Shown: positions 30,323 through 39,160 of the stretch, piece by piece | Layout: the number at the start of each line of letters is the position of its first letter | Position numbering within the stretch: position 1 is the stretch's first letter | DNA from: Acidobacteriota bacterium | Lineage (GTDB): Bacteria; Acidobacteriota; UBA890; WLXD01 | Assembly: GCA_963666215.2 (NCBI GenBank) | Contig: CAXWPL010000005.1 | Coordinates: forward strand, 480,001 to 544,000 | Length of the DNA: 64,000 nt | Direction of reading: 5' to 3' | Translations under genes and position numbers: made by a program | The notes under the pieces: model-generated | Told to the model about the DNA's origin: nothing | Database searches by the model: none | The model's input: only the letters and a program-made list of their open reading frames with translations

Positions 30323-31630
30323 CTACAGTGTTTTGGCGATCTCGGGACGAGCCTTGGTGCGTCCGCCGCTCGAGACCTGTTCTTCTTCGCCCTGTTCGCC
30401 CTCTTCCCCGTCTTCGTTGTCGGCGTCGTCGTGATCATGATCGTGGTCCGACCAGATACCGAACGGCAGATCACCGAACTCGAATTCGAAGCCGTGCAGG
30501 TCGAGGTCATCGAGCTTGAAGTCCCAGACGGCGCCTTCTGCACCGTCGCCGGTCCAGTCGCGGCGGAACTCGAAGAGCTCGTTGGCGTGGTCGCCGAACC
30601 CAATGCTGCCCTCGTCGCCATCGAAGAAGAAGACGCTCGGACCTTCGTGCTCCTCGCCCTCTTCGTGTTGATGGGGGTCGCCCTCGCGCAGCGTTCGAGT
30701 CAGGACACCGAACGGATGCCGCCGCATCTCGTCCGCCTTGTCGCGCTGTTCGGGGGTCAGGATCGCGCGGATCTGCTGACGCAGCCGCAGACCGGCAACG
30801 CGATCTTCAACGCGCATCCGCGAGATCTGCTCCATCTGGGTTTGAACGGCCCCGAGGTCGGCTTCGTATTCGTTTTCGAGCAAGGAGTCGAGGTCGAGCT
30901 CCGCCACCTCGATCGCCGCCTGGCGTTCGATCTCAGCTCGGCGATGATCACGCTCGGCGGAGCGGATACCGTCCTGCTGGTCGTCGGTCAGCTCCAGCTC
31001 CTCAGCGCGGGCCAGGATCGCATCGGCGGAGTTGGACCCTCTCCGCAGGAGCATGCCCGGAGCAGAGATCCGCACGCGCGGTGCGGATCGCACCGAGAAT
31101 CGTCGATCCTGCAGTCCGGACCGCAGACCTTCGAGCGCGTGCCGCCTGGCGATCACAGCGCTTTCCATCGCCTGCTGCGCGCTGTGCAGCGCCTCTCGGT
31201 GTGCAACGCCCCCAGCGCGCTGCCCCTCCACTGCTCGCTCGAGTAGCTCTCGTGTGCGCGCCAAACGCTCATTCGCGACGCCGGTTCGCTCATGAAGACT
31301 GGCCTCGAGGCCGGCGAGCATCCGGTCGAGCTGCTCTTGATGAAGCTGCTTGGCCCCACGTTGCCGCATCACCAGGCGCTCGGCGAGCTCAATCCTGCGG
31401 CGGGCCTCGTCGAGCTGCTTCTTTTCGGGATCGAGCTGCTGTTCCTCTTGAATAGCGCTCGACGTCGGCGAGCCCTCCTGATGAGCGATAGCCGCGTCGA
31501 CCAACGCCACCGAGCCCAGCAGCAGTGTAGCCACGGCCAGACTGGCGGCCATGGTTGTCAGCCGCGAACGCCCTGAGCGTTGCGCCAGCCAGCTCGGCAA
31601 TCGCCGAACCTGATCGGGTGGAGAACCCAT
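30323..31630 (-). CDS. Exported coiled-coil protein with Spy/CpxP-like domain and acidic His-rich tail
   Basis: LELTDDQQ and ILTPEQR (LTxxQ) motifs; DHDHDHDD tail. Confidence 0.65.
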   Translation of the reverse strand: MGSPPDQVRRLPSWLAQRSGRSRLTTMAASLAVATLLLGSVALVDAAIAHQEGSPTSSAIQEEQQLDPEKKQLDEARRRIELAERLVMRQRGAKQLHQEQLDRMLAGLEASLHERTGVANERLARTRELLERAVEGQRAGGVAHREALHSAQQAMESAVIARRHALEGLRSGLQDRRFSVRSAPRVRISAPGMLLRRGSNSADAILARAEELELTDDQQDGIRSAERDHRRAEIERQAAIEVAELDLDSLLENEYEADLGAVQTQMEQISRMRVEDRVAGLRLRQQIRAILTPEQRDKADEMRRHPFGVLTRTLREGDPHQHEEGEEHEGPSVFFFDGDEGSIGFGDHANELFEFRRDWTGDGAEGAVWDFKLDDLDLHGFEFEFGDLPFGIWSDHDHDHDDADNEDGEEGEQGEEEQVSSGGRTKARPEIAKTL

Positions 31631-31736
31631 GTCGAACCTCCGAGTCGAAGGGAGGGAGCGTCGGGGCTTTCGAGAACTGTTGAATAGGAGCGTCGCCGGC
31701 CACAAAAAGTCGGCAAAGAACGAGGCCGACTCGAAA

Positions 31737-31752
31737 TTTAGGCTAGACTAAA
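31737..31752. promoter_or_regulatory. Candidate DtxR/SirR/MntR-family operator overlapping a -10 element
   Basis: TTTAGGCTAGACTAAA is a near-palindrome resembling TTAGGTTAACCTAA, contains TAGACT, and lies 10 nt before ATG 31763. Confidence 0.65.
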
Positions 31753-31762
31753 AATATCTTCT

Positions 31763-33736
31763 ATGAAACGCTCCGCCGCTCTACTTCTGTGCCTACTGCT
31801 GCTCGGTGGGCTATTCGCCGCTCCCGACCGCGGTGACAGCCACATTGTGCGCGAAGCCCCCTGGCACCCCGTGCCGGCCGCTTATCTGCGCAGCCTGTTC
31901 TACATCGGTTTGCAGCCAATCGACTGGCGGCTCGTGGCCTCGGAGTACGAAGCGCCGCTCGAGCCAGCCTACGGCTTCGCTACCGTGTACGACATGCTCG
32001 ACGCTTCGGGTCATCCGCGGCCGGAAGTCGATGCCGTGGGCGGTGGCGAGAGCGACACCACCGCCGGCCGGATGAGCCCAATCAGTCACGGATCGAGCTC
32101 GACAATGATCCGCGCGGCGATCGACGCCGAGGACGCCGCCGGCCTCTACTACGCCTCCACAACAGCCATATCTCGCCTGACTCGCCACTATCTGCACGAA
32201 GCCGAGTCCGCGCTGGCGCTCCCGGGGGCTGCTCAGGAGCCCCTCGAGCGTGCACGGCGCATCTATCGGGCTCTCGAGCAGGACTTTCTGCGCAACTACG
32301 ATCCAGGCGGCAACGCACGACTGGGCCTGAGCTGGCTGACGCTCTCGTCGACGGTCGGCACGGCCGGGGTGGCGGGGACCTCCGCGCGTGGCGCCAATAC
32401 CGAAGCTTTCGTAGGGGCTCGTGAAGAGATCTCGCGCTATCTCATCGATAACTACGAGATCTCCGCGGGCCGCGCCGCGCCGCGCCAAACCTTCCTGCCG
32501 CTGCCCGAAAGTGCTGTCGCAGCTGAGGCTGACCTCCGCCCCTTGAATTGGCTGCCGCCGGGCGCCGACCTCAACGATCAGGATCCGTTGCCTCGACTGG
32601 TACTCAACTTCGAGGAGCGCGGCATTGATGAGAAAGACCTCTTTCTGGTGGCCTACGGCGACATGCTGTTCGACTCGCCCCAGGTGTTTGGCGACCCGGC
32701 ACGCGGTCTCGGCCTGACCTGCTCACGGTGCCACAACCGCAGCGACATCAACCGGCGGCTGTTCATCCCGGGTGTGAGCGCCCGACCGGGCGGCCTCGAC
32801 ATAGACGGGCACTTCTTCAACCCGCGCTTCAACGATCGCCGCAACGACCCGCTCGACATACCGAGCCTGCGCGGCATCCGCTTTACCGGCCCCTACGGAC
32901 GCGACGGACGCGACGGTAGCCTGCGCGACTTCACCCGCAACGTGGTGGTGAACGAGTTCGCCGGCGACGAGCCCACGCCGTTGATGCTCGACGCCCTGGT
33001 GGCTTACATGCAGGAATTCGACTGGCTGCCGGCGCCCTACCTCGAGCCCGACGGAAGGCTCAAGCCCTCGGCTCCAGCCGGCGCCGGGCGCGGCGAAGTG
33101 CTCTTCAACAAGGAATTCGATGGCATGGGCGGGCGCTCCTGCAGCACCTGCCATATCGCCAGCGCCAACTTCGTAGACACCCTTCGCCACGACATCGGCA
33201 GCGGCGATCCGTCGAGCCCGAACGCCCGCGACAGTGCCTTCGAAACCCCGACGCTGCTCGGCGTCGCCCACACCGGCCCGTATTTCCACGACGGCTCGCA
33301 GGAAACGCTTGCCGACGTGGTGAGCTGGTTCAACGAGCACCATTCGCTTGGTCTCAGCGCTCCAGAGCGAAGCGACCTCACGGCCTACATCGAGGCGATC
33401 GGCACCGGCGAAGATCCGTACGAGATCTTCGACGAAGAGAACACTCAGTTCGGGATGTTCTTCGGCGAGCTCACCACCTTCGCCAGCACCCTCAGCACCC
33501 TGCTGCCAGCGCGCGACACGTTCCACGCCGATCTGCTCATCCGCACCGTCGCCGAAGACATGCGGCTCGACGCCAGCGCATTGATTGACAGATCGCAGGC
33601 GCCCCTGGTTTACGAGCTGGCGGACAAGCTCGAGGAAATCGGCACCGCGATCAACGCCGACGATTGGGCCACGGCCGAGTCGCGCTGGATCGAGTACCAA
33701 CAGCTCGAGGCCGAGTACGGGCCTGACTTCAGGTGA
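31763..33736 (+). CDS. Atypical di-heme cytochrome c peroxidase/MauG-superfamily protein with long N- and C-terminal extensions
   Basis: Signal peptide; CSRCH and CSTCH; IPSLRG...GPYGRDG and TPTL.GVAHTGPYFHDG. Confidence 0.82.
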   Translation: MKRSAALLLCLLLLGGLFAAPDRGDSHIVREAPWHPVPAAYLRSLFYIGLQPIDWRLVASEYEAPLEPAYGFATVYDMLDASGHPRPEVDAVGGGESDTTAGRMSPISHGSSSTMIRAAIDAEDAAGLYYASTTAISRLTRHYLHEAESALALPGAAQEPLERARRIYRALEQDFLRNYDPGGNARLGLSWLTLSSTVGTAGVAGTSARGANTEAFVGAREEISRYLIDNYEISAGRAAPRQTFLPLPESAVAAEADLRPLNWLPPGADLNDQDPLPRLVLNFEERGIDEKDLFLVAYGDMLFDSPQVFGDPARGLGLTCSRCHNRSDINRRLFIPGVSARPGGLDIDGHFFNPRFNDRRNDPLDIPSLRGIRFTGPYGRDGRDGSLRDFTRNVVVNEFAGDEPTPLMLDALVAYMQEFDWLPAPYLEPDGRLKPSAPAGAGRGEVLFNKEFDGMGGRSCSTCHIASANFVDTLRHDIGSGDPSSPNARDSAFETPTLLGVAHTGPYFHDGSQETLADVVSWFNEHHSLGLSAPERSDLTAYIEAIGTGEDPYEIFDEENTQFGMFFGELTTFASTLSTLLPARDTFHADLLIRTVAEDMRLDASALIDRSQAPLVYELADKLEEIGTAINADDWATAESRWIEYQQLEAEYGPDFR

Positions 33737-33740
33737 TCGC

Positions 33741-34769
33741 ATGAGCCAAGAAACTCAATTGCAGGCGCGCCGACCCACCGCTACATCTCGTCCGAGTCAC
33801 CGTTGGCGTTGCGACGGAGGTGTGAACGACACGAGTCGGCCGAATCGGCAAGCTCCGCGGCGCTCTCGGCTCGGCCTTTTGGTGGCCGCGCTCGTGCTCA
33901 GCTCTTCGGCAATGCCTTCTCGGCCGGCCCTCGCGGCGCTGTGGGGCCCGGCAACGGGTCAGACAGGCGGCGGCCCGGGTGCCCCGCTTGTCCTGGCGTT
34001 TATCCCGCAGGAGAACCCCGAGAAGCTGCTTGGCGACATCGATGCGTTCACCAGCTACCTCGCCGCTGAGCTCGGCCAGCCCGTGCGCGGCTTCGTGACG
34101 CTCGATCACGCCGCCGCCGTCGAGGCGTTGCGCCACGGTGATGCCGACATCTCGTTCATGGGCGCCCTGCCCTACGTGATTGCCCACGAGCTCATTGGCG
34201 CGCGCGTGCTGCTCTCGGAGATCTATCGTGGCCGACCTGTCTACCGCGGTCGCATTTTTGTGCGTCGCGACGGTGGCATCCGCACACTGGCCGACCTACG
34301 CGGCAAAACAATCGCTTTCCCCGACCCGATCTCCGAGTCAGGCTACTTGTACCCGCTCGACCTGTTCGCACGCGCCAACCTGCTCGAGCGCGGCGCCGAT
34401 CCTCAGAGCTTCTTCGGCACGGTCTACTTCGCAGGCGGCTACCAGCAGGCCATCGCCGCGGTGGCCAACGGCTACGTGGACGCGGCGGGCGCGAGTCAGT
34501 TCGCCGACCTGTTGCTAACGCCCGAGCAGCTGCGAGATGTGACGTGGATCGCCGAAACCGACGAGATTCCTTCACACGCCGTCATCGCGCGCGGCGACTT
34601 GCCGGAACCCCGCGCCGCGGCGTTCGTTGCCGCCATGCTGAAGCTCAACGAGCCCGAGTATCAGCACCTGCTGCAGTACGTCTACGGCCCCGACGGCTAT
34701 GTGACGACGACTCACGAAGCCTACGCCGGTGTGGCCGATGTCGCGCGGCTCTACGGACTGCTCGAATAA
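33741..34769 (+). CDS. PhnD/PtxB-fold ABC substrate-binding protein
   Basis: FIPQENP, A.VEALR.G.AD..FMG..PY, L.DLRGK.IAF.DP.S.SGYLYP, VDAAG. Confidence 0.85.
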   Translation: MSQETQLQARRPTATSRPSHRWRCDGGVNDTSRPNRQAPRRSRLGLLVAALVLSSSAMPSRPALAALWGPATGQTGGGPGAPLVLAFIPQENPEKLLGDIDAFTSYLAAELGQPVRGFVTLDHAAAVEALRHGDADISFMGALPYVIAHELIGARVLLSEIYRGRPVYRGRIFVRRDGGIRTLADLRGKTIAFPDPISESGYLYPLDLFARANLLERGADPQSFFGTVYFAGGYQQAIAAVANGYVDAAGASQFADLLLTPEQLRDVTWIAETDEIPSHAVIARGDLPEPRAAAFVAAMLKLNEPEYQHLLQYVYGPDGYVTTTHEAYAGVADVARLYGLLE

Positions 34770-34776
34770 CAGCCAC

Positions 34777-35592
34777 GTGCCCGCAGCCGCCGAATCCACC
34801 GAGGTGTCGCCGCACGCCCTACAGCTGACGGGTGTCCGCGCGCGCTACGGCGACGGACCCTGGGTGGTCGACGTCGAGCAGCTGACCGTCAATCGCGGCG
34901 AGCGCGTGGCCATCATCGGGCCCAGCGGTTCAGGCAAGACGAGCCTGTTACGGCTCATCAACGGTTATGTTCCGGCGGTAGAAGGGCAACTGCAGATTCT
35001 TGGAAGGACCCCTCGGGATCAGGGTCGCCGCCGCTCTGCGCGCACCGCCGTGGCGTTCATCTTTCAGGAATTCCACCTCGTCGACCGGGCCAGCGTCTTC
35101 GACAACGTGCTGTGGGGTCGCCTCGGGCACGTCCACCCGCTCTCGAGCCTGCTCGGCCGCTTCCCGCTGGCCGACAAGCGGGCCGCCATGGAGGCGATCG
35201 CGGAGGTGGATCTCACTCCTCAGGCAACCCAGCGGGCCGACACACTGAGCGGCGGCCAGAAGCAAAGGGTGGGTGTGGCGCGAGCGCTCGCGCAGGAGCC
35301 ACAGATCCTGCTGGCCGACGAGCCCGTCAGCAATCTCGACCCTGCGCTCGCGGACGACATCCTCGAGCTCCTGGTGCGATCAGCAGAACGACGCAACGCG
35401 ACGCTGCTGCTGACGCTGCATCAACCCGAGCTGGCGCGACGCCATGCCGATCGCATCGTTGGCATGCGCGAAGGCCATGTTGTCCACGACGGCCGCAGCG
35501 GCGACCTGACGGACGCCGACCTGAAGCGCATCTATGGTCGCGAGGGCATTCCGCAGCTCGAACCTCGTGAAAGCTCTGCTCGACGGGCATGA
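34777..35592 (+). CDS. PhnC-like ABC ATPase
   Basis: GPSGSGKT, NVLWGRLG, LSGGQKQRV, LADEPVSNLDP, LHQ. Confidence 0.9.
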   Translation: MPAAAESTEVSPHALQLTGVRARYGDGPWVVDVEQLTVNRGERVAIIGPSGSGKTSLLRLINGYVPAVEGQLQILGRTPRDQGRRRSARTAVAFIFQEFHLVDRASVFDNVLWGRLGHVHPLSSLLGRFPLADKRAAMEAIAEVDLTPQATQRADTLSGGQKQRVGVARALAQEPQILLADEPVSNLDPALADDILELLVRSAERRNATLLLTLHQPELARRHADRIVGMREGHVVHDGRSGDLTDADLKRIYGREGIPQLEPRESSARRA

Positions 35593-36392
35593 TGAGCCCG
35601 TCGAGCGACATCGACGCGCGTATTCCGCGCCCCTCGCCGATGCAGAGCTTCGGCCGCGTGGCCGCCATCCTGGGCGTGGTGGCGGCGATTGCCTGGGGAT
35701 GGCACGGCACGAGCTTCGACCCGGCGCGCTTCGTGGCAGGGCTGCCACGGCTGCGCGAGTTCGTGGGACGCATGCTGCCACCCGACGCCGACGTGGCGTC
35801 GACCGTTCTGCGATCAACGGTTGAAACGCTGCAAATAGCTCTGTTCGGCACACTCTTGAGCGCCATCGCGTCGGTGGTCCTGGGCGTGGCGGCAGCACGA
35901 ACGCTGGCGCCGGCGTGGCTGGCAATCCCACTGAAGTGGATGCTCAGCGCGCTGCGCGCGATCCCGATGCTGCTGCTGGCGCTGTTGTTCGTGTCGACGG
36001 TCGGCCTCGGCCCCTTCCCGGGAGTGCTCGCGGTTGCGGTGCATTCCACCGGGATGCTCGGCAAGTTCTACGCCGAGGCTTTCGACGGCGCCCGATCGGG
36101 TCCGTTGGAGGCGCTCGACTCGGCAGGAGCCTCGTGGCTGCAGCGGGTCCGATTCGGCGTGCTGCCGCAGGTGGCGCCCGTACTGGCACGCGACACACTT
36201 TTCCGTTTCGAGCTCAACCTCCGCGAATCACTCGCCCTGGGCCTCGTCGGCGCCGGTGGTATCGGCCTCTACATCCAGATGTACACCCGAGCGTTCCAGT
36301 ACGACAAAGTTGCTACTCTGACGATCGTCGTGCTCCTCATGGTGGTGCTCGTCGAACAGGCCAGCGTCGCGGTCCGGCAGCGTCTCCGCTAG
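35589..36392 (+). CDS. PhnE-like ABC permease
   Basis: ETLQIA..GT, GLGPFPGVLA..HS.G.LGKFYAE, RFE.NLRES..LG.VGAGGIG. Confidence 0.9.
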   Translation: MMSPSSDIDARIPRPSPMQSFGRVAAILGVVAAIAWGWHGTSFDPARFVAGLPRLREFVGRMLPPDADVASTVLRSTVETLQIALFGTLLSAIASVVLGVAAARTLAPAWLAIPLKWMLSALRAIPMLLLALLFVSTVGLGPFPGVLAVAVHSTGMLGKFYAEAFDGARSGPLEALDSAGASWLQRVRFGVLPQVAPVLARDTLFRFELNLRESLALGLVGAGGIGLYIQMYTRAFQYDKVATLTIVVLLMVVLVEQASVAVRQRLR

Positions 36393-36419: not shown

Positions 36420-39160
36420 ATGAAGCTAGCCTCAGGCACAGCCAAGCCGGCACCCAGATCGCTCCTACGGGTCGGGCTGCTCGGCCTCGGGCTGATCTCC
36501 CTTGCGGCGGTTCTTTGGGCCTGGAGCTTCACCCACTCCGGCCTACCGCGACGCCGAGGCGCGGCCGCCATCCCCGGCTTGTCGGCGCCGGTCCGCGTTC
36601 GATTCGACGACTGGGGCGTGCCGCACCTCGACGGCGCGAGCTTCGCCGATTTGGCGCGTGGCATGGGCTACGTCCACGCCAACGATCGATTCTTGCAGCT
36701 CGAGCTCGGCCGGCGACAGGCCGCCGGCCGGCTCGCCGAGGTTCTCGGGGAGCGGGCCGTGGGCGCCGATCGTTACTACCGCGGCCTCGGGCTGACCCGG
36801 ATCGCTCGAGCGCAGGTAGAGGCTGCCGGAGCCGAAACTTCCCGTCTTCTCGACGCCTATGCCGATGGCGTCAACGCCTGGCTCGCTGAGCGGCGCGGCG
36901 ATCTGCCGCCCGACGTGCGGTTGCTGTTGCGCGGCCGAGAGCACTCGCAACCGGACCCCTGGAAGCCGATCGACAGCGTCTATTTCCAGCTGCTCATGGC
37001 ACACGACCTGGGTTTCTGGCAGGGCCGACCCGAGGAAACGCGCTTCGAGTTGCTTGCCAGTCTGGGCAGAGAGCGCTTCGCCGACCTCATGGGAGACAAT
37101 CCGCACGTGCCGCGCGAAATCGCCGACCTCGCAGCCGAGCTCTCCAGCCAGCTCGCAACCCGGGAGGCCGACCGCCTGGCCGGGTTCCGGCCGGACCCCG
37201 TGGCCGCCGCGTTCGCCGCGCGGCGCACCTCGTCAGCCGTCGCCAGCGAACAACGCGTCGCGATCGGCAGCAACAACTGGGCGGTCGACGGCAACCACGC
37301 GGCAAGCGGATTGCCGCTGCTGGCGAGCGACCCCCATCTCGCATTGCGACTGCCGTCGATTTGGTATCAGGCCCTGCTACGGGCGCCCGACTACGAGGCC
37401 GCCGGGATGACGCTGATTGGTTTCCCGTTCGTTGTCATCGGCCGTGGGCCGGATCTCGCCTGGGGCTTCACCAATACCATGCTCGACGATCACGACCTGT
37501 TCTTCGAAGAGGTCGAAAACGGTCGCGTTCGTCGCGGCGACCGCTGGGTCGAGCTCGAGCAGGTCGAGGAGCGGATCCTCGTGCGCGGCGCCGACCCGAT
37601 TGCGATCACCGTCAGCTACGGCGATCGAGGCGTGGTTCTGCCACCCGATGAAGAGAGAGGCTTGCCGGCACGCAGCCTCAGCTGGACGGCCGCGGTACCG
37701 AGCGATCCTTCCACAGCGTTGCTGAATCTGGCTCGCGCACGATCGATCGACGACGTCCGCGAGATCGGTGAGATGGGGGGCGGCCTCGAGGGCTACGCCG
37801 CCCCGGCGCAGAATCTGGTCGCCGCCGATCGGGCGGGCGGCATTCTGCAGACGGTCATCGGACGCGTTCCGCTGCGGCGCCGCGGGGACGGGCGACTGCC
37901 GTCGCCGGGGTGGGACGAGCGCTACGGCTGGTCCGGACTGCGTCCGCAACACGCCAATCCTACGATCGAGCGGCCTGGACGCGGTTTCTTGACCAGCGCC
38001 AACAACGACGTTCGCGGAAGTCCTGGCAACGATACCGGCACGGCAACCACCGCAGATGAAGGTGTTTCTGTCCCGCGCAACGCATCTGGCGGTCCGACGG
38101 TTTCCGACGACGACGACGTCGAGCTCGACGCGGCCTTAGACGTCGCTCTCGTCGGCAACTTCGACACCGACCATCGGGTGCGACGCATCGAAGAGCTCCT
38201 GGCGGCCCGCGGCGATTGGACCCCGACAGGTTTCGCCGAGCTGCAGAGCGACACCCGCTCGCTCTACGCCAGCGAGGTGATCGCCGCGACGCGCGCGCAC
38301 TTCAAGGTGCCTAACGGTGGTGGGGACGCCCAACGGAATTACGCGCCCGAAGATCCGAGAGCGACGCGAGCTCTCGATCTGCTGGCGGCCTGGGACGGCG
38401 ACATGCGCACCGAGGCCGGCCCGGCGGCAGCTCTTTTCGTCCCGTTCGATCAGGAGCTTCACCGAGCGGTCTTCGCCGACGAGGTGCACGAGGCCGCGCG
38501 CAGGTCTGGCTTCAACCGCCGCCGACAGCTCACTCGATTGCTTCGGGGAGACATGACGGACAGCTGGTACGACGACGTCTCGACGACCCAGACAGAGGGC
38601 GCGCGCGACATTTTCGAGCGCGCGCTGGCCGTTGCATGGCAGCGAGCCAGCGAGGCTTGGGGTGAGGACTCGGAACGCTGGAACTACGAGACGATCCACA
38701 CGCTCACGTTGACGCATCCGCTCGGATCGCTGCCCGTCGTCGGCAGCTGGTTGAACCGCGGCCCCATGCCCATCCCCGGATCGGCTACCAGCGTCGCCGC
38801 CTTCGGTGGCGGCTTGAGCGACCGACGGGTAGTCGTGACCGCTGGGCCCTCGATGCGTTGGATCGCCGACCTTTCCGAAGCCGACTCCGGACTCGTCTCC
38901 CTACCCGGCGGTCAATCCGGCCATCCGCTCGACCCGCACTACACCGATCAGCTGCAGCCGTATCTGCAGAACCAGGGACGGCCGCTGCGCTTCACCGAGG
39001 CTGCGATCGCCGCCAACACCGTCAGCACCATGGCGCTGCTACCGACCGTGAGTCGCTCGCTTGGGGCTGGAGGCGGCGAGAGCGGAGACGAGATCGACCT
39101 GCTCCTGGTCAGCGAGCGCGTGGTCGATGGCAGCGGTGCCGCGGCCGGGCCCGCGGCGAT
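36420..39160 (+). CDS. Penicillin acylase family (Ntn hydrolase) domain; N-terminal part of an apparent fusion
   Basis: DDWGVPH, GYVHANDR, GSNNW nucleophile, SDPHL, SANN, PGGQSG.P..PHY.DQ. No stop follows; the frame runs into DLLL...VVDGSG. Confidence 0.88.

Follow-up and report, generated by a model that had tools for sequence, protein, structure and literature searches.

What does an importer carry when its three transporter parts belong to phosphonate families, a palindrome of the metal-repressor kind lies ahead of its genes and a di-heme protein is encoded at their head? The question is raised by the window analyzed here, the whole of a 64,000-nucleotide (nt) stretch from an Acidobacteriota bacterium (assembly GCA_963666215.2, contig CAXWPL010000005.1, positions 480,001 to 544,000), near the middle of which lies a unit of four genes encoding a di-heme protein, a PhnD-family periplasmic binding protein, and the ATPase and permease of a transporter of the ATP-binding cassette (ABC) kind. 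The four genes probably form one operon for an ABC importer, with the di-heme protein as its redox partner; its cargo would be a metal cation, manganese (Mn) being the likeliest. The unit and the palindrome ahead of it are laid out as follows:

31737-31752, no strand: palindrome made of the halves TTTAGGCT and AGACTAAA, ending 10 nt ahead of the ATG at 31763
31763-33736, + strand: di-heme protein gene; 657 amino acids (aa), secreted, with CSRCH and CSTCH motifs
33741-34769, + strand: PhnD-family periplasmic binding-protein gene; ATG start, 342 aa
34777-35592, + strand: PhnC-type ABC ATPase gene; GTG start, 271 aa
35589-36392, + strand: PhnE-type ABC permease gene; ATG start, 267 aa

The intergenic gaps are 4, 7 and -4 nt, the second of which hinges on the GTG at 34777 as the start of the ATPase gene (an alternative in-frame ATG at 34738 overlaps the upstream gene). 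The four co-oriented and tightly packed genes described in the initial annotation are thus confirmed from the open reading frames (ORFs). The binding protein matches the Pfam family Phosphonate-bd (PF12974; 1.1e-55) and the NCBIfam subfamily model for phosphate, phosphite and phosphonate binding (TIGR01098; 150.3 bits, above the cut-off of 112), scores 145.5 against the PhnD equivalog TIGR03431, below its cut-off of 261.1, and matches a putative-selenate model weakly (86 bits vs a cut-off of 250). The ATPase matches ABC_tran (7e-33) and, below the cut-off of 266.1, TIGR02315 (242.5 bits), while the permease matches BPD_transp_1 (5.5e-19) and scores 263.2 bits against the PhnE equivalog TIGR01097 (cut-off 216.7). 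For the di-heme protein, the Pfam family CCP_MauG is found at 31 bits (cut-off 25.6). Among the 120 best database homologues of the binding protein, every named one carries a phosphonate-type name; together with the TIGR01098 and PhnE equivalog matches, this agrees with the earlier expectation that automated annotation would call the unit phosphonate uptake.

The di-heme gene is a fixed part of the unit. A genome scan, with one genome per species, returned 333 pattern matches, 328 of which encode a di-heme relative; the best 80 were made into loci, and pairing and regulator counts refer to these 80 genome loci, box counts to 78 genome loci. The di-heme gene is followed directly by the binding-protein gene in 78/80 loci, and the two exceptions stop at a contig end. 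The complete four-gene order is present in 70/80, the remaining ten being broken by contig ends exactly where the series stops, and the ATPase gene keeps its position in all loci that reach that far. Counted from the binding protein outward, in a separate metagenome collection and among loci in which 400 nt or more are available upstream, the di-heme gene lies directly upstream in 59/59; two outgroup binding-protein matches (26% identity) in the metagenomes have no di-heme gene upstream. The pairing suspected in the initial annotation is therefore conserved, and it is obligate in both directions.

By record title, the unit is carried by Acidobacteriota, Thermodesulfobacteriota, Dadabacteria, Methylomirabilales, Chloroflexota groups, Spirochaetia, Trueperaceae, many Alphaproteobacteria and a Porticoccus, with the best matches in metagenome-assembled genomes titled Acidobacteriota; the carriers in culture, which are harmless bacteria of sea and soil, include Roseovarius, Tritonibacter, Sulfitobacter and Bosea. 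The alphaproteobacterial loci include many close relatives, so that raw counts overstate independence and the spread over phyla is the stronger point. Full-length di-heme relatives with 50-62% identity number 986 at E ≤0.001 among 8000 candidates scored, and 3266 di-heme relatives were found at E ≤0.001 in a scan of 1.84 billion representatives. Among the kin of the window genome the unit is patchy (6/10 genomes of the same family, 2/15 of a second family and 0/5 others), and a related query found it in 6/151 genomes sampled from the phylum. In the Rhodobacterales-type loci (L043-L061 and kin), the mntR gene is 94-100% identical across records titled as different genera, as is the gene, some 590 nt downstream, for a heavy-metal P1B-type ATPase; this identity of the neighbors across genera points to recent horizontal transfer in these loci. 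A P-type ATPase gene abuts the unit in the Chloroflexota locus L034 too.

The palindrome is self-complementary at 14/16 positions and has the core TTAG-N6-CTAA at 31738-31751. The bare core occurs only five times in the 4.65-Mb genome, and the chance of finding it in a given 130-nt spacer is about 4e-4, as estimated by arithmetic from base composition. When scored with a matrix built from the sites of other genomes only, the window site ranks first genome-wide (30.6 bits). The DtxR-type palindrome that had been noticed ahead of the unit is borne out by this core and score. The spacing of its half-sites is that of the enterobacterial MntR consensus AACATAGCnnnnGCTATGTT (PMC1698941), and it is predicted to be the site of the genome's single DtxR/MntR-family repressor. 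Of 78 genome loci, 46, from several phyla, have the exact core no more than 330 nt ahead of the di-heme start, and 55 have it when one mismatch is allowed. Elsewhere in these loci, 1.02 Mb contain 21 exact boxes, most of which precede an adjacent dtxR-type gene or a gene for an outer-membrane barrel that heads the operon. In metagenome loci, the box lies within 330 nt in 24/35, further upstream in 4/35 and nowhere in 7/35; among same-family relatives of the window genome, one or two boxes are present in all five loci fetched.

An outer-membrane barrel gene (~270 aa) heads the operon in Acidobacteriota, Dadabacteria and Thermodesulfobacteriota, with boxes preceding each:

L002:4019-4960: barrel gene
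L003:1523-2512: barrel gene
L020:6020-6980: barrel gene
L006, L010, L011, L012, L024 and L028: barrel gene about 1 kb upstream of the di-heme gene

These genes form two families that are unlike by BLAST, one with a weak match to Phenol_MetA_deg, and in L004 and L005 only a 3' remnant of the barrel gene is kept. In the window genome, further high-scoring boxes stand ahead of another exported protein:

25-60 nt before the gene at G000:C2:429631-430845 (L082:5032-6249), on another contig: tandem pair of boxes, 27.1 and 15.5 bits (genome ranks 2 and 4)

The protein behind them is secreted and 384 aa long, with one CxxCH near the N-terminus and a C-terminal Phe; it matches no Pfam family, with Porin_O_P as a weak lead only, and its Atlas entry gives Acidobacteriota as the commonest source. 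Its heme-plus-porin layout, as we take it, recalls Cyc2-type iron oxidases. An orthologue with 66% identity is found in 1/5 same-family genomes, again with two exact boxes ahead (L180). A further exact box core (14.8 bits) lies at G000:C5:660010-660031 (L083:5015), between divergent genes for an SNF-family transporter and a GAF-GGDEF-HD protein.

The regulators encoded beside the unit appear to be of kinds that sense Mn. Of the 80 loci, 46 have a DtxR/MntR-family gene no more than 400 nt upstream and four have an adjoining Fur-family gene. Among nine diverse loci, whose 48 flanking ORFs were compared with Pfam, four have a DtxR/MntR-family gene directly upstream, and a fifth, from Bosea, has a Fur-family gene and an Nramp gene. 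The Rhodobacterales-type regulator passes the NCBIfam MntR equivalog (197 bits vs a cut-off of 153), and its best solved relative is chain 2h09, named MntR (6e-38). The only DtxR-family gene of the window genome lies on another contig, and its product has 5zr4, 8pvt, SloR and ScaR as its best solved relatives (3e-45 to 2e-29), with weaker matches to IdeR (3e-24) and DtxR (~1e-17) than to the SloR/ScaR group. Its best NCBIfam model is the Mn-dependent MntR (178.8 bits), with DtxR at 101 bits. The protein carries the motifs EDYIK near the N-terminus and HEEAERLEH further on. Its Asp8 and the Glu at the place of DtxR Cys102 presumably represent the Asp/Glu pattern characteristic of Mn sensors, DtxR having Met10 and Cys102 instead.

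Shared boxes link the unit to recognized Mn genes in two other genomes. Fur homologues in Rhizobiales and Rhodobacterales are described as regulators that answer to Mn (Mur), and their genes are found clustered with those for Mn uptake (PMC1698941). In the Bosea locus L035, the repeat TTGCAA-N5-TTGCAA is present both in the mntH/fur spacer, before the Nramp gene, and before the di-heme gene; this strict Mur-like site occurs upstream in only two loci of 78, both from Bosea, while other Rhizobiales loci show looser TTGCAA/TGCGAA repeats. In a Nisaea genome, the exact TTAG-N6-CTAA core also stands 65 nt before a YfeA/MntC-type binding-protein gene, the product of which has YfeA (4.7e-113) and MntC (6.7e-106) as its best solved relatives. 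Of five carrier genomes tested, one has an Nramp gene and all five have ZnuA-family genes, with a box at 1/8 of the ZnuA-family loci fetched. The unit is very likely a metal importer under metal-sensing control. That Mn is the regulatory signal is likely, and that it is also the cargo is probable. The regulators point to Mn rather than iron (Fe), whereas the Tyr-rich pocket described below would suit Fe(III) at least as well.

The pocket of the binding protein differs from that of its phosphite-binding relatives. In Te_PtxB, phosphite is held by Y55, Y100, S130, T131, S132 and H160, with Y208 and D22 as caps (PMC5700983). The HMMER alignment to chain 5lv1_A matches the Te_PtxB numbering of that paper and, with positions counted by hand, places the residues as follows:

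Te_PtxB D22: Q90 in the window binding protein
Te_PtxB Y55: H123
Te_PtxB Y100: Y168, kept
Te_PtxB S130: S198, kept
Te_PtxB T131: E199, in the middle of the anion loop
Te_PtxB S132: S200, kept
Te_PtxB H160: Y234
Te_PtxB Y208: H279

Five of the eight positions are thus replaced, comprising three of the six oxyanion ligands and both caps, and alignments to Ps_PtxB and AioX agree with this mapping where they cover the pocket. Across 73 orthologues (67 distinct sequences) none of the eight pocket residues varies apart from H123, which is His in 70 and Gln in three. Among the 120 best database homologues, the motifs DPxSESG and GGYQQ are each present in 120/120 and IP[SA]H in 119/120. The altered binding site proposed in the initial annotation accordingly holds up, in that the substitutions are real and invariant among orthologues. 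The combination of E199 with two His and two Tyr would make a set suited to a hard metal ion and is not what an oxyanion site would be expected to need.

Signal peptides differ between lineages. The N-terminus of the window binding protein (33741-33990) contains ..PRRSRLGLLVAAL.. in a twin-arginine-like signal peptide, and similar peptides are present in many orthologues, mostly alphaproteobacterial (e.g. ..KRRSFLASAAG..; also L033, L035 and L042), while orthologues from Dadabacteria and Thermodesulfobacteriota have plain Sec-type signal peptides. It may be speculated that export of the folded binding protein guards against mis-metallation.

The di-heme protein combines a core of the bacterial cytochrome c peroxidase (bCCP)/MauG fold with two helical additions:

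Residues ~30-250: N-terminal helical domain
Residues ~280-555: bCCP/MauG-fold core
Residues 555-657: C-terminal four-helix bundle

The CxxCH motifs at 320-324 and 460-464 are both invariant in 122 sequences. An AlphaFold model based on the alignment of these sequences has a mean predicted local distance difference test score (pLDDT) of 93.3 and a predicted template modeling score of 0.89; an earlier model from 20 sequences was poor in the heme core (pLDDT 63.6) and had no match below E 0.3, with only generic four-helix bundles. The core of the 122-sequence model matches hydrazine synthase gamma, BccP, MauG, an MbnH-like protein, YhjA and BthA, both by VIA (Z 17-19.5, root-mean-square deviation 2.8-3.9 Å over 220-244 residues) and by Foldseek (E 3e-8 to 1e-4, target TM 0.45-0.61). 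The bundle at 555-657 matches only generic bundles (Z 11-13), which is not meaningful, and an Atlas look-up of residues 25-265 gave no usable match. By sequence, the best curated NCBIfam model reaches 43 bits against a cut-off of 363 (MbnH), and the MauG model 35 vs 444. When 20 sequences are aligned, the likely signal-peptidase site directly precedes a His that hardly varies, with E31, E32, W34 and H35 behind it; this His together with E31, E32 and H35 at the mature N-terminus would form a possible metal site. Behind PYFHDG, HMMER alignments set ...VVSWFNEH... of the window protein against ...KIMG... of MacA and ...IDIYSEG... of 6e1c; we take Trp522/Phe523 to stand at the place of the sixth ligand of the second heme, which is Met in bCCP or Tyr in MauG and BthA. 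Relatives of ~430 aa (P0141-P0271) consist of the di-heme core only, at 31-48% identity, and lack the N- and C-terminal helical domains. None of eight such relatives scanned reaches a curated NCBIfam cut-off, and a query with one of them in 151 genomes of the phylum returned only the cassette's own gene, in six genomes.

What the importer carries, in which oxidation state, and which way the redox step runs, as we infer them from the above, would fit together in the following way. When Mn is plentiful, an MntR-type repressor would occupy the box, which would overlap the promoter and start region, and the operon would be off; when Mn is scarce, the operon would be transcribed. The metal would then reach the periplasm, in some lineages via the co-regulated outer-membrane barrel, and in the window genome possibly via the secreted CxxCH and porin-like protein whose gene lies behind two boxes. 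There the di-heme enzyme would oxidize Mn(II), or less likely Fe(II), with peroxide or another acceptor, and the oxidized ion would be handed to the rebuilt PhnD-fold binding protein. The binding site would hold a hard, probably trivalent ion with a small synergistic anion, as in the ferric-binding proteins, where Fe3+ is held by Tyr and synergistic anions in a positively charged site of the anion type (PMC10804667). The loaded protein would dock on the PhnE/PhnC-type permease and ATPase, and cytoplasmic reduction would release the metal. This oxidase hand-off is put forward tentatively, as a possibility. That the unit is the first dedicated Mn(III) import route, combining peroxide-using di-heme oxidation and tyrosinate-type capture with, in some lineages, supply by a heme-bearing porin, is somewhat unlikely.

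Several observations weigh against an Mn importer with a redox partner. The pocket is read from alignment positions, and the role of the di-heme protein from its family and its pairing. Three of the six oxyanion ligands of PtxB are kept, so an anion may still bind, and the permease clears the PhnE equivalog cut-off. Tyrosinate-rich sites are typical of Fe(III) and not of Mn(II). The regulator of the window genome does not adjoin the unit, and its 178.8 bits lie below the curated MntR cut-off of 350. The two Nramp genes and the ZnuA-family gene of the window genome have no box above 14 bits, so that the assignment to Mn in this genome draws on homology and on other genomes. Finally, 23/78 genome loci have no box even at one mismatch, including all three Spirochaetia loci; with the box lacking in a quarter to a third of loci, control is not uniform. 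Six Geminicoccales-type loci carry another palindrome in place of TTAG-N6-CTAA:

15-60 nt before the di-heme start: 18-bp palindrome TGTGAACAGCTGTTCACA, exact in L033, L041 and L042, with variants in L025, L029 and L077

This palindrome is probably the operator of a different regulator; no Rfam match was found in the six loci with this alternative leader.

The alternative that survives best gives the di-heme protein another role, that of a maturase, which would oxidize a side chain of the binding protein (e.g. an invariant Tyr or His) once per molecule and thereby create the metal site. MauG acts on methylamine dehydrogenase and MbnH on MbnP, and the known members modify partner proteins. The nearest families of the window protein by sequence and fold are MauG, MbnH and BthA, its strict one-to-one pairing fits an enzyme with its protein substrate, and the pocket of the binding protein has invariant aromatic residues on which such an enzyme could act. 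However, the window protein has about 350 extra residues that are absent from MauG and MbnH, and this extra part includes the probable mature N-terminal His with Glu, Glu and His, which resemble a metal site. Maturation is rather unlikely.

The same architecture with iron as its cargo would require the di-heme protein to oxidize Fe(II) and the binding protein to take up Fe(III) in the manner of FbpA or transferrin, with the Mn-type regulators explained by cross-talk between Mn and Fe. The set of His, Glu and two Tyr is of the classic Fe(III) kind; FbpA uses Tyr and synergistic anions (PMC10804667), and in EfeUOB a heme peroxidase is coupled with the uptake of iron (PMC9174327). In the window genome, the second target of the box, the secreted CxxCH and porin-like protein, also fits iron, and some solved relatives of the window regulator are titled iron-dependent (8pvt). 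Nevertheless, three unrelated types of regulator of the Mn kind stand beside the unit, namely the MntR equivalog, the Rhizobiales Fur-family/Mur protein and an MntR-like type, the last with an extra C-terminal domain and matching Mn-dependent proteins best. In addition, boxes are shared with mntH and with the YfeA/MntC-type gene, and no box turned up before recognized iron genes, though these were not searched systematically. Iron as the cargo is therefore distinctly unlikely.

The di-heme protein could alternatively work in the opposite direction, taking respiratory electrons to reduce a Mn(III)-ligand complex, Mn(IV) or Fe(III), with the binding protein then carrying a divalent ion. In oxic habitats Mn and Fe are insoluble in their oxidized state, and such a scheme would make use of the co-regulated heme-bearing porin-like protein of the window genome and one relative, as well as of the barrel genes at the head of the operon in Acidobacteriota, Dadabacteria and Thermodesulfobacteriota. 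Against it, a site with two invariant Tyr would favor a trivalent over a divalent ion. The bCCP/MauG family, moreover, is known mainly for oxidizing chemistry, and reduction as the role of this member is improbable.

The names given by annotation could also be right, with the unit importing phosphite, hypophosphite or phosphonate, perhaps after oxidation by the di-heme protein in the periplasm. All three transporter parts fall in families of P-oxyanion transport, Y168, S198 and S200 are kept, and the permease match is at equivalog level. However, a Glu takes the place of the central Thr of the anion loop, both caps are changed, and metal regulators and boxes are present instead of signs of phosphonate use. 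No PhnJ was found in the window genome (91.7% complete) and no phosphonatase above cut-off (best 39 bits vs 220), nor was any P-catabolic gene found among the 48 flanking proteins of nine loci, although no search aimed specifically at ptxD was made in the genome or the flanks. The earlier statement that no carbon-phosphorus lyase is near thus extends, by the lack of PhnJ, to the genome, and that on phosphonatase agrees with the sub-threshold score; for ptxD the limit just given applies. A scan for Pho boxes of the Escherichia coli type gave nothing in the window, although the Pho boxes of these phyla are not defined. The same scan gave hits in 35/78 loci, nearly all in one conserved stretch about 200 nt upstream; checked in L047, this position is inside the divergent mntR coding sequence, and the hits were rejected as a likely artefact of coding sequence. 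The comparison of orthologue promoters thus yields MntR-type boxes in many phyla and no Pho box of the E. coli type that seems genuine, and P-oxyanion import is very improbable.

Least probable of all is the uptake or sensing of another oxyanion or metalloid (arsenite, antimonite or selenite), on the model of the PhnD-family proteins AioX and ArrX for arsenic species. Chains of these two proteins rank with the best solved relatives of the binding protein (3e-18 to 1e-15), and the putative-selenate model matches weakly. The unit, however, lacks a sensor kinase but has both permease and ATPase complete, its neighboring regulators are of the Mn type, the scanned flanks showed no gene for arsenic or selenium, and the conserved His position of AioX is a Tyr here.

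Two further genes flank the unit in the window:

30323-31705, - strand: LTXXQ/CpxP/Spy-like ORF, 460 aa, with a C-terminal tail rich in His, Asp and Glu; divergent from the unit, with the box in the common spacer
36420-38800, + strand: penicillin-amidase-family gene, beginning 27 nt past the permease gene

No homologue of the LTXXQ/CpxP-like ORF was found in the 80 genome loci; the ORF may have joined the regulon locally or have no connection with it. A distant relative of the penicillin amidase (26-28% identity) is encoded about 2 kb upstream of the unit in 17/80 loci (e.g. L047:3239-5176), titled mostly as Rhodobacterales-type Alphaproteobacteria; the presence of such a gene near the unit may be coincidence. 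Rfam found no family in the window, and scans for sigma-70 promoters and terminators gave nothing at either end of the unit.

If the unit is a metal importer with a heme partner, hundreds of genomes are mislabeled with a 'phosphonate transporter' and a 'cytochrome c peroxidase', a labeling that would inflate estimates of phosphonate use in soils and seas and hide a route of metal uptake. A binding-protein fold would have switched from an oxyanion to a metal cation via about five substitutions, and a heme-dependent step would be added to Mn acquisition, for which we know of no importers other than MntH, ABC systems of the SitA/MntC type and carriers of the MntX type. Should the cargo be Mn(III), the unit would be an Mn counterpart of the iron oxidase-permease principle, with a range from Acidobacteriota to marine Roseobacters and a presence in at least 328 species genomes. 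The unit bears on Mn and Fe cycling by abundant bacteria of the Roseobacter group, and its carriage by cultured bacteria makes the idea directly testable. No paper linking this unit to Mn was found by full-text search, and the word 'phosphonate' does not occur in the article text of the main comparative study of Mn regulons in Alphaproteobacteria (PMC1698941).

Among known systems, PhnCDE, PtxABC and HtxBCDE share with the unit the families of all three transporter parts and the layout of binding protein, ATPase and permease. The window unit differs from them in having five of eight Te_PtxB positions replaced, an obligate di-heme gene, metal-type regulators apparently in place of Pho control, and no P-catabolic partner genes found with it. 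EfeUOB/M is alike in logic, as it combines a periplasmic heme enzyme, a metal-binding protein and a membrane importer under metal control (PMC9174327). However, the two systems have no homologous part: a di-heme c-type bCCP/MauG protein, an ABC importer and a PhnD fold stand here against dye-decolorizing peroxidase (DyP), EfeU/Ftr1 and EfeO/M75, and the DyP, EfeO-M75 and EfeU families are absent from the Pfam and NCBIfam results. With the poor first model of the di-heme protein, Foldseek listed EfeO and EfeM, but only as weak matches (E ~2). FbpABC has a class II binding protein that holds a hard ion in a Tyr site of the anion type with a synergistic anion, as is proposed for the window protein from its sequence, but the binding protein is of another family. 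FbpABC is not known to have a redox partner gene and is iron-regulated.

MauG, MbnH and BthA resemble the di-heme protein in their two CxxCH motifs and shared fold, and each is encoded beside a specific partner protein; the window protein is set apart by scores far under the curated cut-offs and by its extra N- and C-terminal helical domains. SitABCD, MntABC and YfeABCD, as well as MntH, are associated with the same kinds of regulator, and in two genomes with the same box as the unit, whereas the binding proteins of the ABC systems have the unrelated cluster A ZnuA/TroA fold and no heme partner. What would be new in the window unit, with parts drawn from known families, is a binding-protein lineage for a metal ABC importer together with its obligate heme partner.

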